The notes beneath the pieces were generated by a model. The model was given only the letters and a program-made list of their open reading frames with translations. It searched no databases and had not been told where the DNA came from. A program made the position numbers and the translations under genes. Shown here piece after piece: positions 2-6,125 of a stretch of DNA of 6,125 nt; the stretch's first letter is position 1, and every line of letters starts with the position of its first letter. The stretch spans positions 1-6,125 of the forward strand of contig JAEOSI010000142.1 in NCBI GenBank assembly GCA_016840425.1, in the 5' to 3' direction. This stretch comes from Candidatus Wukongarchaeum yapensis (GTDB lineage Archaea; Asgardarchaeota; Wukongarchaeia; Wukongarchaeales; Wukongarchaeaceae).

Positions 2-741
2 TTACTGCCTTTGCTAGCCCTTTTGATAACATTAAGCATTATTCCATCGGCACGGGCAACAGATACACGAGAACTGGAACCGGTTGCTGATTCATACGTT
101 AACATCGACCATCCAGACACTAATTACGGTAACTATTCTTGGCTATCTCTTGAGAGCCACTATATGATGGATGAACTTTCATACAATAAATTTGACTTGT
201 CGATCCTTCCAGAAGACGCTGTGATAGAGAAAGTGACGCTATATTTGCACGTAGGTTGGCTTAGCGACCCTGAAGAAGTCATAGTTTGCAATTCTGGTAC
301 AGATTGGTCGGAAATGGAAATAACGTGGAACAATAGACCCGGTTATGAACAAACACCTACTGATATAGTCTACGTAAGTTATGGTGAAAAGTGGTATTCT
401 TAGGATGTGACGGCAGACATTACAACGAATAAGGCTTACTTTTGGGCAATTCTCTTCGACTTACCGACTATACATGGTTGGCCTGATATGGACTTTGACT
501 CATCAGCAGAATGGACGAAGGCTTAAAACCGTACTTGGCCATCGAAGACTCGTATCTTGGAGTTTTAGGTTTTTCGCCTAGCATTTTCACATCGTTAGTA
601 GTGATAGGCGCAATAGTAGTAGTTTTTGCAATGGTGTTTGCGGAAAAACCGTCAGCAGGCCGTTTGAAGTTCGATATTTTGATTTGTGTATTAAAGGCGC
701 AAAAATTATGCGGGAAGAAACGAACTCAAACAAAAATGTAA
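2..741 (+). pseudogene. Disrupted secreted/membrane-anchored DNRLRE-domain (CBM96-like) surface protein; 5' end lies outside the window
   Basis: The frame is open from position 2 (LLPLLALLITLSIIPSARA, signal-peptide-like). Family motifs follow: ADSYV..HPDTNYG, SY.KFDLSILP..AVIEKVTLYL, DWSEMEITWNNRP. TAG at 401-403 interrupts WYS*DVT, where the family usually has W. The frame continues to DFDSSAEW and stops at TAA 524-526. The closing motif KPYLAIE and a hydrophobic anchor (SIFTSLVVIGAIVVVFAMVF) are in a different frame (511-741). Confidence 0.75.
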
Positions 742-1054
742 AAAAACAGAGAAAAAGGAAAATGGTGAGCCTTATAAAAATGCGGTTAGATATTGGATAA
801 ATAAAATAAATAAGGTTGAGAAAACCTCGAATTTTAAGCCTCAAGAAGCTTTAGGATTTTTAACCAGTTCAAGCAGTAGAGGGTTATTTGTAGTAGTAAT
901 TTTGTGGATAAGCGAAACGAATAATTGGCCTAGAAATATCGTGATACCTGTCATAGTGATAATCGTTCTAATTTTTCCTTTTTTGGAACTTTTTTTAATA
1001 GATTTAAGGAGAAAGGGAAGGAGGCAGTATGAGGAGTTCACGAATACGGTCTGA
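708..1054 (+). pseudogene. Frameshifted (or recoded) small two-TM membrane protein of about 115 aa, not in the ORF track
   Basis: ATG at 708 reads MREETNSNKNVKK and stops at 798-800. The -1 frame is open from 695 to TGA at 1052-1054 without an ATG. Joining at the A7 run (740-746) gives MREETNSNKNVKKTEKKENGEPYKNAVRYWINKINKVEKTSNFKPQEALGFLTSSSSRGLFVVVILWISETNNWPRNIVIPVIVIIVLIFPFLELFLIDLRRKGRRQYEEFTNTV: charged N-terminus, two hydrophobic segments, basic tail. Confidence 0.5.
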
Positions 1055-2101
1055 TGGAAGCCCTGCTTCTATGCCTAACGCAATAGCTCTAAGGTTTCTA
1101 ATCTCGAAATAGACTAAGTTATAGTAACCAGCGATCATTCCAAGGTGTAAAGGTGAAAGTTTGAACTGTTCAATGCTTTTTTCCAGAACCATGCGTTTCA
1201 AGTTATGCTCTAAAGCAAAAAAGCTTCCACTCTCAGCATAACCTCCTCGGAAAGCCTCTATGTAAGGCACATAATCACGGATTTTTAAAAGAAATTGAAA
1301 GGCGTCATCTAAGCTTTCAGAAAGGATAACCTCCTCTAATAAGCTTTCAGAAACGTTGTAATAAATAGGGATTAAATATCGTTTTATATCTTTTAAGTCT
1401 ATACCAAGGCTCTTACAACGGAAAATGGTTACTATGTTTTGAGCATCAATTTCTGAACCAACGAGTATGCTAACCCTTTCTCTTTCACTTTTACCCAGCT
1501 TTTGAACGTATTCCCATAGAATAGGGAACACGAAATAATCAATTGCAGTTTCCCATTCTACAATCTCTGAAGCTTCAAGTAATCCTTTTTTATAAACCTC
1601 TCTTAAGGAAGGATAATATTTGCGAGCGTTTATTTTTATAACCTCTAGAAACTCTTCAAAAGAAGTAGCACTAGTAATCCTAGAAAGAACTTCCTGAGTA
1701 AAAATGCCGACAGGAATTACCGAGGATAAAACTTCTTCTGGATCTATTTTACTGAGAAATCCTCGGATAACGGCTTTCAAAGTCTCGGCTTCAAATTTTG
1801 TCAAGAACTGGTCTAAAAAGTCTCTGACTATGCCTGTAGAAACTTTCATTATTTGCAAAACACTTGAGAAGAAATGTTGGGATAGGGCGCTCTCAATGGA
1901 GTTAGCAGATAATTTATCTGCTTCAATTTTTAGGAGCTCTTCGCGATAAGGAGTAATATCTAAGAAGGAAACAAGTTCTCCAAGGGAACGCATCTCAGCT
2001 AAACTACGCAGATCCCAAGGAGATAATAATTTTGCCTTCCTAACTGCAATTTTAGAAAGGGTGTAACCATGACTAATTAGGTAACTAAACGAACTTGGCA
2101 T
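1004..2101 (-). CDS. atpC: A/V-type ATP synthase subunit C (homolog of V0 subunit d)
   Basis: 365 aa ORF. N-terminal GYTLSKIAVRKAKLL...LGELVSFLDITPY, central KFEAETLKAVIRG and DAQNIVTIFRCKSLG, and C-terminal EIRNLRAIALGIEAGLPSDRIRELLI are typical of AtpC/NtpC. It lies downstream of atpI-atpK and has an SD-like GGAGTGG 6 nt before the ATG. Confidence 0.93.
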   Translation of the reverse strand: MPSSFSYLISHGYTLSKIAVRKAKLLSPWDLRSLAEMRSLGELVSFLDITPYREELLKIEADKLSANSIESALSQHFFSSVLQIMKVSTGIVRDFLDQFLTKFEAETLKAVIRGFLSKIDPEEVLSSVIPVGIFTQEVLSRITSATSFEEFLEVIKINARKYYPSLREVYKKGLLEASEIVEWETAIDYFVFPILWEYVQKLGKSERERVSILVGSEIDAQNIVTIFRCKSLGIDLKDIKRYLIPIYYNVSESLLEEVILSESLDDAFQFLLKIRDYVPYIEAFRGGYAESGSFFALEHNLKRMVLEKSIEQFKLSPLHLGMIAGYYNLVYFEIRNLRAIALGIEAGLPSDRIRELLILPPSLSP

Positions 2102-2195: not shown

Positions 2196-2678
2196 TTATG
2201 GCAAAGAAGAAACCATTAGGAAACTTATGATTAAGCCGTAAATTGCTAGTGCTTCGCTAAGAACCACCGGAATCAAACTCATAACGAATAGGTCAGGGTC
2301 TTCTGCTGTAGCTTTAGCGTTGCTACTACCAGCATATCCGATAGCTATACCCGCAAAAAGTGCAGCAAACCCCATAGTTAACCCAGCCCACATCAGGGCA
2401 GGAGCACCGTTTTTAAATTCCTCGGAAGCGACATCATCAGGAAAGTATCCAGTATACCATGAGAGCCCTAAGAAAGCTATTATGAGGCCATATATTCCAA
2501 GTGCTTCAGCTAAGACAGTGCTGATTATCATTTTCGACGATTGCTCTTTTCTCTCGGTCATAGAGCCGCCAATTGAGGGGGATGAAAGCCCGATACCAAA
2601 AGCTGCTCCAGCTAAACTTAAAAATATGGCTGCACTAATGCCTACAGCTCCTTGAACAATCGGATCACCAAACACCAT
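2196..2678 (-). CDS. atpK: A/V-type ATP synthase proteolipid subunit K/c, duplicated four-TM form
   Basis: 160 aa with four hydrophobic helices in two hairpin repeats: VLAE58ALGIYGLII and VLSE142ALAIYGLII. Gly/Ala-rich helices 1 and 3. Located between atpI and atpC. Confidence 0.96.
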   Translation of the reverse strand: MVFGDPIVQGAVGISAAIFLSLAGAAFGIGLSSPSIGGSMTERKEQSSKMIISTVLAEALGIYGLIIAFLGLSWYTGYFPDDVASEEFKNGAPALMWAGLTMGFAALFAGIAIGYAGSSNAKATAEDPDLFVMSLIPVVLSEALAIYGLIISFLMVSSLP

Positions 2679-2750: not shown

Positions 2751-4955
2751 TTACTTAATTGCGGTAAATTCACGCTTAATAGTAAAGGGTTCATATTTGT
2801 ATCCATCAAAATTCAAACCCAATTTGCTGAAAAACTCGACCCACTGTAACCTGAGGCTGTGCAAGAGCGAAACCAAGGTTTCCAGCACGATGACTAGGAT
2901 GTTTCCGATGAGGAGGATTGGGACGCTTACAGGGGTTATTCCTTCTCCAGCCATTTCTATGAAAACAGCCATGAGTGTGATGTGGGCAAGGTTTAAAGCG
3001 AAAAGCCGTATATAACTTGCGGTGTTCCCAATACTACTTAGAGTCCCTTCAACAGCCTCTATAGCAGAATGACCTAAAGCAATTTTAGCCATTGCAGCAT
3101 CGCGATATAAGAGGATTTCTGCTATTCCTACGCCAAAAAACATCCCTAAGAGGCTAAGTATAGCAACATAAAACAATGGGGTGCCCGTTAAAATATTCAT
3201 GAAGGTATTAATAGCTCCTTCATGATCTTTATCAAAAAGCTCCCAATATCCTTCAAGATCCACAAGAGACCAGAGAATTAAAACCCCTAAAACTCCAAAA
3301 GTACTGGCATAAAAGACGAGCCAGCTAATGGAACCCACGACTTCTGCAAACTCGCCCTGTTTAATCTTATTATAAACATTTAACACAAGGCCGATCAATA
3401 TATGAATGACTCCTATGACAATAGCAAGTTTAATTTTAAACTTGTTAAATTGTGTTTCATCATGTTCTACCAGATGAAACATCTTTTCGCTTAGCATGTA
3501 ACGCATTAGTGGAAAATGCTTTTTAGTACTGGGTATTTTTTCGGTGAGATGATATCCAAAAATTTCGCCGAAAAAGAAACCGAAAAATATAGAAAAGATT
3601 CCGCAAAGAATAATAGCCTCTGCACCATTAAAGATCATTTTACCTATATCGCCCTTAATTTTCTTCGTTTTTCTAACATGTAGGGCCCATAAACCAACGA
3701 GTAAAAGAATAAGACCATGGCCTACATCAGGAAACATTATGCCAAAAAATATGGGGAAAGATAGTGCGACGAAAATACCAGGATTGATCTCGCGATGGGA
3801 GGGTACACCATAAGCATTAACGATTCCTTGAAAGGGTTGTATCATAGAAGGGAACTTGAAGTTGGAAGGAGGGGGGTCATTTTCGCCTTCATCATGACCA
3901 TGTTTTCCAGGATTGTTAGAAGAAGAAACGCTTTTTTCTTCTTTTTGAGAGTGGTTTTTATGCTTGGAAAAACCATTCCCTTTTAAAGCGATCATGGTAA
4001 CAGTGCCATAGGTGATTTCTTCAATCGATTTCTTTAAATCATCAAGGTTTTCTTCGGGAACCCAACCTTCGATCATTAAAGTTTTTTCTGTGCGGCCAAA
4101 CTTTTCCCTGCCTTCAGCTTTAATCCTTTCGATTTCTACAGCTTCTTTTAAAACGCACAGTTCTTTTCCTTTTTCCTTTGCTATTGATTCTAATGAAGCT
4201 TCAAGCTCCATGAGACGTTTTTCATCTTCTTTAAGCTTCTTTTCTATTTCTGGTAAAACTTTGTTAGGATCTGCATCAAACTCGTCTACAGGTTTTAGTT
4301 CTTGAAAATCAAAAAGGGAAAGGTTTTTCTGCACAATTCCTTTAAAAGGGGATAAAGAACTAATAAGAACGACTTGTCTTTCAGCAAATTCTTTCCCTTT
4401 TAGGAGGAGGATGTTGTTATAAGTGTCTTTACTTAATTTCTTTTCTAATTCTGGAAGTAAACGTGAGGGAGCTGTTCCGAAAAAAACTGCTAACATGGAA
4501 GTAGAACGAATTTCATAAGCAGTTATTTTAAAAGAGAGAAGGGCTTCATAAACGCGTTTAAGTTTGCTTAAACGTTCAGATTCTTCCTTAAGCGAATTGA
4601 TATTGGAAATGATTTTTTCAGTTTCCTTTTTAATTTTAGTAACCCTCTCTGCGAGATGATCAATCATTTGTTTTGGAGGTAAACGCTCAAAAACTTCACA
4701 AGAATCAACTATAACACTTTCTTCGTCCATGGCTAGGAGATCAAACGTATTTTTAACGTCTTTAAGGATTTCATTGGCTCTTCTTAAAGCATAAAATTCT
4801 TCCTTAGGCCTAACTTCGCCTTTATAAAGGCTAAGCTTTTTTCGTAGATCTGAAAGGTGTAAAACACCTTTTGCGGAGAGCATGTCGACAACATCTTCAA
4901 CATATTTTTCCAGCACTAATAGTTGGATTTTTACCATTGGTTCGGCGTATAACAT
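2751..4955 (-). CDS. atpI: A/V-type ATP synthase subunit I (subunit a)
   Basis: 734 aa. Soluble coiled-coil N-half with IEGWVP, then PFQGIVNAYGVPSHREINP, FPIFFGIMFPDVGHG, the essential-Arg motif NTASYIRLFALNLAH (Arg codon 3006-3008) and C-terminal HSLRLQWVEFFSK...GYKYEPF. Confidence 0.97.
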   Translation of the reverse strand: MLYAEPMVKIQLLVLEKYVEDVVDMLSAKGVLHLSDLRKKLSLYKGEVRPKEEFYALRRANEILKDVKNTFDLLAMDEESVIVDSCEVFERLPPKQMIDHLAERVTKIKKETEKIISNINSLKEESERLSKLKRVYEALLSFKITAYEIRSTSMLAVFFGTAPSRLLPELEKKLSKDTYNNILLLKGKEFAERQVVLISSLSPFKGIVQKNLSLFDFQELKPVDEFDADPNKVLPEIEKKLKEDEKRLMELEASLESIAKEKGKELCVLKEAVEIERIKAEGREKFGRTEKTLMIEGWVPEENLDDLKKSIEEITYGTVTMIALKGNGFSKHKNHSQKEEKSVSSSNNPGKHGHDEGENDPPPSNFKFPSMIQPFQGIVNAYGVPSHREINPGIFVALSFPIFFGIMFPDVGHGLILLLVGLWALHVRKTKKIKGDIGKMIFNGAEAIILCGIFSIFFGFFFGEIFGYHLTEKIPSTKKHFPLMRYMLSEKMFHLVEHDETQFNKFKIKLAIVIGVIHILIGLVLNVYNKIKQGEFAEVVGSISWLVFYASTFGVLGVLILWSLVDLEGYWELFDKDHEGAINTFMNILTGTPLFYVAILSLLGMFFGVGIAEILLYRDAAMAKIALGHSAIEAVEGTLSSIGNTASYIRLFALNLAHITLMAVFIEMAGEGITPVSVPILLIGNILVIVLETLVSLLHSLRLQWVEFFSKLGLNFDGYKYEPFTIKREFTAIK

Positions 4956-5219: not shown

Positions 5220-5237
5220 TTTAAAAGAGTGATAAAA

Positions 5238-5570
5238 ATGGGCGAAAACGAAGAAAACAAAGAAGAAACTTCTGGTGAAAGTATTATCGATAAAGAAGTT
5301 ATGGCAGCAATAAAAAGAAAAACGGAACTAAGGGAAGAAGAACAAAGAACAAGTAGGTTTATGGAAAGACCAGGAAGAGAGATATCGGATGCCCTTTATT
5401 ATGGTACGAGTATACCTATATTGTCGGTAGTTGGAGCGCTTATAGGGTGGTATTTAACTCGGGATTCGAGCGCAACTTTAAAAGTTTTAGGCGTCGCAGG
5501 CGGAGCCATTCTTGGACTATTATGGGGATTATTTGAAATAATCAGAAAAGAACAGAAAAAAAGCTACTAA
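5238..5570 (+). CDS. AtpZ/AtpI-like (ATPase_gene1-type) two-TM membrane protein, about 110 aa
   Basis: Acidic/charged N-terminus, then helix GTSIPILSVVGALIGWYL, a short loop, helix VLGVAGGAILGLLWGLFEII and a basic tail RKEQKK. The Gly spacing resembles the AtpZ family, and the gene is flanked by ATPase genes. ATG 5238 is preferred over GTG 5229 because GAGTGA (5227-5232) fits as its SD. Confidence 0.65.
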   Translation: MGENEENKEETSGESIIDKEVMAAIKRKTELREEEQRTSRFMERPGREISDALYYGTSIPILSVVGALIGWYLTRDSSATLKVLGVAGGAILGLLWGLFEIIRKEQKKSY

Positions 5571-5945: not shown

Positions 5946-6125
5946 TTACCCGATGGAAATTGTACCGAACAACAGAATAGCGATGACTAGACCGTAAATA
6001 GCAATAGCTTCCATCATAACGATGAAGATCATGGATTTACCGAAAACTTCTGGTTTTTCTGTTATAGCTCCAATTGCCGCAGCAGAAGCATTACCCATTC
6101 CGACACCAGCACCTAGACCAGCAAG
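5946..6125 (-). CDS. atpK: Second A/V-type ATP synthase proteolipid subunit K/c, C-terminal 59 aa (5' truncated by the window edge; absent from the ORF track)
   Basis: Translation from 6125: LAGLGAGVGMGNASAAAIGAITEKPEVFGKSMIFIVMMEAIAIYGLVIAILLFGTISIG*, TAA at 5948-5946. It has the GxGxGxG helix, the polar EKPE loop and the ion-binding E-A-I-A-I-Y-G motif. Confidence 0.95.
   Translation of the reverse strand, partial: LAGLGAGVGMGNASAAAIGAITEKPEVFGKSMIFIVMMEAIAIYGLVIAILLFGTISIG

Follow-up and report, generated by a model that had tools for sequence, protein, structure and literature searches.

The proteolipid gene and its flanks

The window, by which we mean the whole 6,125-nucleotide stretch of DNA analysed here, is an entire contig (C146) of a 2.16-Mb metagenome-assembled genome (MAG) that is 92% complete. 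It carries a gene for a four-helix proteolipid, which we call K4, flanked by genes for subunit I (PF01496) and subunit C (PF01992), all three on the minus strand, which together make up the membrane sector of an A/V-type ATPase. The features referred to below are:

2196..2678, minus strand: K4, proteolipid (subunit K/c) of an A/V-type ATPase, 160 aa, two hairpins and four helices (open reading frame, PF00137 twice, AlphaFold2 model, PDB and Foldseek matches, dN/dS)
2505..2507, minus strand: codon GAA of Glu58, the helix-2 carboxylate, aligned to the glutamate kept by eukaryotic c'' (human c'' alignment, column states)
2253..2255, minus strand: codon GAA of Glu142, the helix-4 carboxylate, aligned to the glutamate kept by eukaryotic c/c' (column states; c'' has Ser there)
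2751..4955, minus strand: subunit I (stator a-subunit), 734 aa, 72 bp upstream of K4 (PF01496; PDB matches to eukaryotic a at 1e-37 versus Thermus I at 4e-17; trees)
1004..2101, minus strand: subunit C (AC39; homologue of eukaryotic d; rotor socket), 365 aa, 94 bp downstream of K4 (PF01992)
5946..6125, minus strand: 3' part of a single-hairpin K (K2), the last gene of a neighbouring I-C-K2 sector, cut by the contig end (PF00137)

The K4 open reading frame is intact and spans 2196-2678 on the minus strand, and the plus strand is riddled with stops over the same positions. Its translation contains two PF00137 ATP-synt_C domains (E 1.3e-31; 109 bits against a Pfam cut-off of 24). In an AlphaFold2 model built from a 15-sequence alignment (mean pLDDT 92.4), the protein forms helices at residues 6-42, 44-76, 86-126 and 128-157, with Glu58 and Glu142 both in mid-helix, so that each hairpin has the mid-membrane carboxylate of a PF00137 hairpin. 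An earlier note on this DNA had described a four-helix proteolipid with a glutamate in both hairpins; the open reading frame on the minus strand, the paired domains, the modelled helices and the GAA codons at positions 58 and 142 bear this description out, and the helices quoted in that note are found in the K4 translation. Within K4 the N- and C-hairpins are 38% identical, helices 2 and 4 being much alike. Measured against a relative that is 94% identical, K4 has a dN/dS of 0.25, indicating purifying selection, and the same holds for each of K4, I and C, with values of 0.25-0.34. Five short contigs of a metatranscriptome (X20) lie over coding parts of C, K4, I and K2, the K4 piece being ∼94% identical; because the presence of a contig in RNA data is no proof of transcription, these provide a weak hint only. 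We predict, with high confidence, that K4 serves as ring subunit in a functional membrane sector of the A/V type.

Two membrane sectors and a dispersed head

The end of the window contig overlaps the end of another contig of the same genome (C142) over 144 identical bases, which puts I-K4-C and an I(717)-C(374)-K2 sector side by side in tandem. This tandem layout is repeated on three independent metagenome contigs (23-26 kb) and in a sister species. The genome has multiple copies of its membrane-sector genes, I, K2 and K4 twice each and C three times. The genes for head and stalk are single: A (contig C158), B (C120), D (C189) and E (C208) each sit among unrelated genes where their flanks were assembled. 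The B, D and E genes are equally solitary (contigs C55, C1 and C43) in a congeneric genome (G399, 87% complete), in which no subunit A gene was found; two classical A-B(-D) clusters are found in the one genome that represents the sister family of the same order. By sequence, the subunit A of the window genome is an ordinary archaeal one, scoring 846 bits with P. horikoshii A, 702 with Thermus A and 621 with eukaryotic A.

The second four-helix gene, K4b, is an orphan on contig C194 (L009, 1130-1609, minus strand). Its product is 77% identical to K4 and keeps both glutamates, and its dN/dS is 0.16. K4b occupies the spot at which the sister species has its I-K4-C module, and the K4 of that species is 91% identical to K4b; remnants of I or C were looked for beside K4b and none were found. 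A 90-bp inverted repeat (79% identity; L009 1639-1728 and 4520-4608) brackets the DNA that replaces subunit I near K4b.

Three further genes adjoin the ATPase genes. Between both sectors, on the opposite strand, lies an ORF of 110-113 aa (window 5229-5570, plus strand) that is conserved on all related contigs and has no match in Pfam or NCBIfam. Immediately upstream of the tandem locus, a gene on one related contig (L043:808-2730) encodes a 640-aa protein with HEAT/adaptin-N/Cnd1-like repeats. At the other edge of the window (2-403, plus strand), a gene represented by its 3' part encodes a protein that looks secreted and has a carbohydrate-binding module of type CBM96 (E 4e-18).

Host and distribution

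The reading in the earlier note would fit an Asgard/TACK-related host, and the genome does fall in the Asgard phylum, in a GTDB class with three species only in the reference set. A class of just three species puts the genome outside GTDB's large class Heimdallarchaeia, despite the NCBI label 'Ca. Hodarchaeota'. By K4, the nearest named genome is 'MAG: Candidatus Hodarchaeota archaeon DZ1B.339' (94% K4 identity), and the order Hodarchaeales has been placed in class Heimdallarchaeia (bioRxiv 10.1101/2024.07.04.601786). The subunit I of another MAG with the label 'Hodarchaeota' is almost the same as in a genome (G299) that shares only the phylum with the window genome. Metagenomes from about ten studies, of marine sediment, mangrove, soil and seawater, contain near-identical DNA. 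Close orthologues of K4 are confined, across 400 Asgard genomes, to the same genus.

Comparison with known proteolipids

In a phmmer search against all PDB sequences, K4 matched eukaryotic c'' at 7e-20, c at 2.5e-18 and c' at ∼3e-13, colinear over residues 6-157, with Enterococcus hirae NtpK (1.6e-8) and Thermus K (1e-6) far below c'' and c. A Foldseek search with the K4 model gave TM scores of 0.83-0.86 to c''/c and 0.77 to NtpK. Both searches are in accordance with the colinearity between the K4 helices and eukaryotic V0 proteolipids that the earlier note had pointed to. K4 thus has the same colinear four-helix core as c'' (ATP6V0B/Vma16) and c (ATP6V0C/Vma3), with orthologous N- and C-hairpins (see below), but it differs from both in having two glutamates and in sequence (33-39% identity), and from c'' in having no fifth N-terminal helix. 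Its gene belongs to a prokaryotic cluster that also contains I and C, and the enzyme has an archaeal head.

When K4 is aligned to human c'', Glu58 stands opposite the c'' glutamate and Glu142 opposite a serine. The two glutamate columns of a 270-row alignment read E/E in 113 rows, G/E in 105 (eukaryotic c type and NtpK type) and E/S in 43 (c'' type). With E/E in 113 of the 270 rows, two glutamates are the normal state of an archaeal four-helix K, and the two-glutamate state that the earlier note had singled out is therefore no special feature of K4. By the same columns K4 departs from c and c', which have a helix-4 glutamate and a helix-2 glycine (G/E throughout the eukaryotic c clade), and it departs from c'' in that Glu142 is present and that the protein starts at core helix 1, its alignment beginning at c'' residue 46.

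K4 reached no equivalog cut-off in NCBIfam. The closest model was that of eukaryotic c (TIGR01100, V_ATP_synt_C), at 58.1 bits against a cut-off of 61.45. The NtpK-type 'V-type c' model NF005124 gave 52.5 bits against 127, and K4 stands apart from that type in its two glutamates and in belonging to a separate clade; the models of duplicated methanogen K, NF011483 and NF004913, gave 53.8 against 188 and 63.5 against 211. K4 is a protein that would work like a duplicated two-site archaeal K, and it is not a eukaryotic c, c' or c'', nor of the NtpK type. The duplicated K of methanogen type, described with two active sites in a preprint (10.64898/2026.10.01.756066), likewise has two hairpins each with a carboxylate, so that ions per ring are not lost and ATP synthesis is compatible with it. 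E. hirae NtpK shares with K4 the four helices and the role of an A/V-type ring subunit but has one carboxylate and a distant sequence; NtpK-like 'V-type c' occurs in bacteria and in some anaerobic archaea (Litty & Muller 2022, PMC9171764).

Beyond the genus, the nearest K are four-helix proteins, 35-49% identical, of Bathyarchaeia, Methanomethylicia/Culexarchaeia, Baldr-, Odin- and Promethearchaeota, and other relatives are giant multi-hairpin K of Hermodarchaeota-type genomes. The Bathyarchaeia proteolipids encoded in the order I-K4-C are closer to K4 (40-49% identity) than the eukaryotic ones are, and they resemble eukaryotes equally, which removes the idea that K4 is uniquely eukaryote-like. 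The modules most similar to that of the window are those of Bathyarchaeia group A (e.g. L048, L054, L077) and an H-E-I-K4-C locus of the P0146 type, which have its gene order, length class and both glutamates. Group A differs in belonging to another phylum; the window K4 has a long stem, the window I is nearer to eukaryotic a than the group A I is, and the window module is a second sector beside I-C-K2, with the head genes dispersed.

Position among four-helix K

We placed K4 in a careful tree of 59 rows under LG+C20, rooted on the NtpK type, from which the K4 of the Asgard genome G285 (L035) was left out because of its branch of 2.7. In this tree, eukaryotic c and c'' fall into a clade (97/87) that excludes other four-helix K and consists of three parts in no resolved order: Bathyarchaeia A-1; Bathyarchaeia A-2 with a pair formed by P0144 and the window (90/79); and eukaryotic c plus c'' (98/92). 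Group B Bathyarchaeia and Loki-type K4 are sister to the whole clade (100/99). When the window genus is taken out, eukaryotes still join group A and P0144 (91). The alternative, monophyly of the archaeal K4 to the exclusion of eukaryotes, was not rejected (AU p 0.27). The earlier note had named a firm grouping with ordinary bacterial or euryarchaeal K as the outcome that would speak against its reading, and no such grouping appeared in the searches and trees against eukaryotic, NtpK-type and Asgard K; these trees were drawn without the duplicated K of methanogens and Pyrococcus.

The place of K4 itself within the clade is less clear. The free search pairs the window K4 with P0144 and group A (90/79, 87/76), not with eukaryotes, but a tree constrained to unite window and eukaryotes is 0.94 lnL better than the free search (AU p 0.54). 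From these sequences, a direct sisterhood of the window K4 and the eukaryotic V0 proteolipids is neither shown nor rejected, and the special affinity to the eukaryotic clade that the earlier note had proposed stands for the archaeal family to which K4 belongs, which nests with c and c'', and not exclusively for K4. The branches of both the window K4 (1.5) and the eukaryotes (0.9) are long, so attraction between them is possible.

The first three branches of c'' are eukaryotic proteins with both core glutamates: P0187 of Pygsuia biforma, P0204 (L126:788-1291) and P0268 (L127:6001-6808). Branches of the E/E type at this point fit an E/E ancestor. As candidates for archaeal near-eukaryote proteins the same three had been rejected, the first for its organism and the others for lying on a contig with a eukaryotic-type RPL10 and on an intron-bearing contig.

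Neighbouring subunits I and C

In a 52-row alignment of subunit I, R650 is invariant, with R702 and E707 close to it at 98% and 96% conservation. Every tree that contains both recovers the membrane domain of the window I as the sister of eukaryotic a, which was sampled with six sequences. The pairing received 97 in a quick LG+G4 tree of 92 rows and 78/37 in a careful mixture tree with 28 further Asgard I, there within a trio with G285 at 94/80; with Bathyarchaeia group A added it received 92 in the quick and 91/92 in the careful tree. In the careful tree, group A, G285/L087 and the window with the eukaryotes form a group (77/80) that is sister to the remaining Asgard/TACK I, and the I of the K2 sector next door groups with ordinary Asgard I. 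Forcing the prokaryotic members of this group together without the eukaryotes made the tree 9.6 lnL worse (AU p 0.043), a value to be read in the light of the post hoc choice of this group, made with the tree already known. Eukaryotic a still joins group A and G285 (87) once the window genus is removed, and the window I pairs with G285 (88) once the eukaryotes are removed; the module family reaches no more than 77/80 in the I tree, and its monophyly is not clear after removal of the eukaryotes.

The gene order I-K4-C is common to the group A loci and to the P0146 locus (H-E-I-K4-C). The nearest relatives of the window subunit C are 33-35% identical, and the sole one with an organism name is from Bathyarchaeota. 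Against the PDB, the window C matched eukaryotic d only (3e-7), and a profile of its family gave eukaryotic d (4e-15) slightly above Thermus C (5.5e-12).

These relationships bear on a different reading, which we consider possible but doubtful: that the genus acquired a fast-evolving I-K4-C cassette of Bathyarchaeia type horizontally, as a second sector, and that long-branch attraction explains why it appears as a sister of eukaryotic a and c. The family link might then still hold, but this genome would be uninformative on the eukaryotic ancestor. Such a transfer would agree with the Bathyarchaeia as the source of the closest non-genus relatives of both K4 (40-49%) and subunit C (33-35%), with the identical gene order, with the restriction of close K4 orthologues to one genus among the 400 Asgard genomes, with the long stems and with the free K4 tree that joins the window to P0144 and group A; Bathyarchaeota ATPases are, moreover, oddly placed in ATPase trees (Wang et al. 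2019, PMC6863869). It agrees less well with the window I, which under the mixture model is sister to eukaryotic a (91/92) and not inside group A, with the slightly better likelihood of the K4 tree that unites window and eukaryotes, and with a tree of separate hairpins in which the C-hairpins of all eukaryotic proteins have that of the window as their sister (80).

Origin of the hairpin duplication

We split the proteins into N- and C-hairpins and scored these on hairpin profiles of eukaryotic c and c''. The N-hairpin of K4 scores 46.5 / 46.8 bits on the c / c'' N-profiles versus 21.7 / 17.0 on the C-profiles, and its C-hairpin scores 67.2 / 65.4 bits on the C-profiles versus 36.3 / 35.7 on the N-profiles, a cognate excess of 25-30 bits in both directions. 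Group A Bathyarchaeia and P0144 have the same pattern, which was absent from the profile scores of the NtpK-type control and of Loki-type/group B and Hermod-type proteins. The tree of hairpins recovers one clade of N-hairpins, from eukaryotic c and c'', the window, Bathyarchaeia A and B and Loki (SH-aLRT 94), and another of C-hairpins, from eukaryotic c and c'', the window, group A and P0144 (97). Both hairpins of the NtpK type instead join single-hairpin K (98), which points to an independent duplication in the NtpK type; that this group is NtpK-like is seen from one member, P0080, which matches 2bl2 at 5e-36.

By scores and tree alike, each K4 hairpin is orthologous to its counterpart in eukaryotic c and c''. 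The pairing of N with N and C with C, missing in the NtpK type, suggests that the duplication is common to K4 and the eukaryotes. A likeness of this kind could also result from two independent duplications, in the archaeal family and in eukaryotes, followed by convergence under the constraints that act on inner and outer hairpins of four-helix ring subunits. Hairpins of ∼65 residues do yield weakly resolved trees, helices 2 and 4 of K4 are much alike (38% identity between the hairpins), and multi-hairpin K arose repeatedly in archaea, as the preprint cited above (10.64898/2026.10.01.756066) also reports. However, the NtpK type is under the same constraints and shows no cognate preference, its hairpins going with single-hairpin K, the Loki-type and group B K4 have no consistent cognate preference on the eukaryotic profiles, and the excess in K4 amounts to 25-30 bits both ways, so that we regard convergence as improbable.

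A transfer of a eukaryotic (stem) V0 sector into archaea, as the source of the I-K4-C family, would also make the two mutual nearest relatives, and unrooted trees alone give no direction, but we think it very improbable, given that the archaeal members are paraphyletic around eukaryotes in trees rooted on the NtpK type or bacterial outgroups, that the archaeal proteins have no c'' extra helix and keep both glutamates, that the modules lie in prokaryotic clusters with archaeal H and E and that the head subunit A is archaeal.

A model of the K4 sector

Our preferred reading is that K4 is the rotor-ring proteolipid of one of two membrane sectors and that its I-K4-C family shares the duplication of eukaryotic V0 while having the ancestral two glutamates, which we consider probable. 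In such a sector, copies of K4 would assemble into a ring in which Glu58 of helix 2 and Glu142 of helix 4 provide two protonatable carboxylates per protein at the interface of ring and stator. These would meet R650, the presumed stator arginine of subunit I, whose gene lies directly upstream. Subunit C would cap the ring and couple it to the central stalk of the single A3B3 head, which both sectors may share.

With one carboxylate in each hairpin, the ion/ATP ratio would not be halved and would be as high as in single-hairpin A-type synthases, and with an undiminished ratio the enzyme could run as an H+-driven synthase. Even rings of one-site 'V-type c' are able to synthesise ATP (Litty & Muller 2022, PMC9171764). 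As for the ion, the Na+ motif E[STQ][STQ]xxY defined in the preprint (10.64898/2026.10.01.756066) is absent from both K4 hairpins and from K2, which predicts H+ for both. A split of Na+ and H+ between the two sectors was considered and is unsupported, there being no Na+ motif in K4 or K2. What several rotor and stator sets on one head might be good for is a matter of guesses, such as different ring sizes (gear ratios) or mixed rings of K4 and K4b.

Evolutionary reading

In the textbook account, the eukaryotic proton pump arose by a doubling of the ring subunit, followed by the loss of one carboxylate. To our knowledge, no living intermediate on the line to eukaryotes has so far underpinned this account. 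The module described here would be part of a TACK/Asgard family with further members in Bathyarchaeia group A, the H-E-I-K4-C locus of the P0146 type and the Asgard genome G285. The hairpin duplication of this family may be the very event behind eukaryotic V0 c/c'/c'', the family retaining the ancestral two glutamates, eukaryotic c later losing that of helix 2 and most c'' that of helix 4. The earlier note had cast K4 as a protein in the state after the duplication and before the glutamate loss. For the I-K4-C family as a whole this fits well, with a duplication shared with eukaryotes, both glutamates and E/E in the basal c'', but it does not single out K4, and the same division applies to that note's reading overall.

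One step further, and tentatively, the I-K4-C module of the window genus might be the nearest extant relative of the eukaryotic V0 sector in its entirety, a-subunit and c-ring together, from a cell with two alternative sectors on one A1 head of dispersed genes. Eukaryotic V0 would then come from a second, specialised archaeal sector that predates the glutamate losses. We think this extension rather unlikely as it stands.

Pointers to living intermediates would be the two-carboxylate archaeal family with its apparently shared doubling, the stator next to eukaryotic a and the few protist c'' with both carboxylates. If the shared duplication is true, the order of events (duplication, c/c'' split and glutamate losses) becomes testable in extant proteins. 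It is unusual for a single head to be accompanied by several alternative gene sets for rotor and stator, and this arrangement bears on how one sector might be specialised for a new membrane. What appears to be new is the kinship, that is, an archaeal I-K4-C family that shares the eukaryotic duplication and has a stator nearest to eukaryotic a. A literature search of incomplete coverage turned up no paper stating a kinship of I-K4-C and eukaryotic V0; the ATP synthase trees of Mahendrarajah et al. 2023 (PMC10656485) appear to use the catalytic and non-catalytic head subunits.

Related loci in other genomes

Two observations were made on relatives outside the genus. The closest non-genus K4 (P0146, 48% identical) is encoded on a contig (L171) of GCA_040961345.1, in an H-E-I-K4-C cluster without A/B that is flanked by genes for Nuo/Mrp-type antiporter subunits, an H+-pyrophosphatase and cytochrome b. 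In Asgard genomes labelled Hermodarchaeota, Odinarchaeota H3S.115 and, in some cases, Promethearchaeota, we found single ORFs of 535-1149 aa composed of many fused K hairpins, with up to 12 four-helix matches per protein (L024, L083, L101, L102, L110 and others), which are reminiscent of the 13-hairpin K of Methanopyrus.
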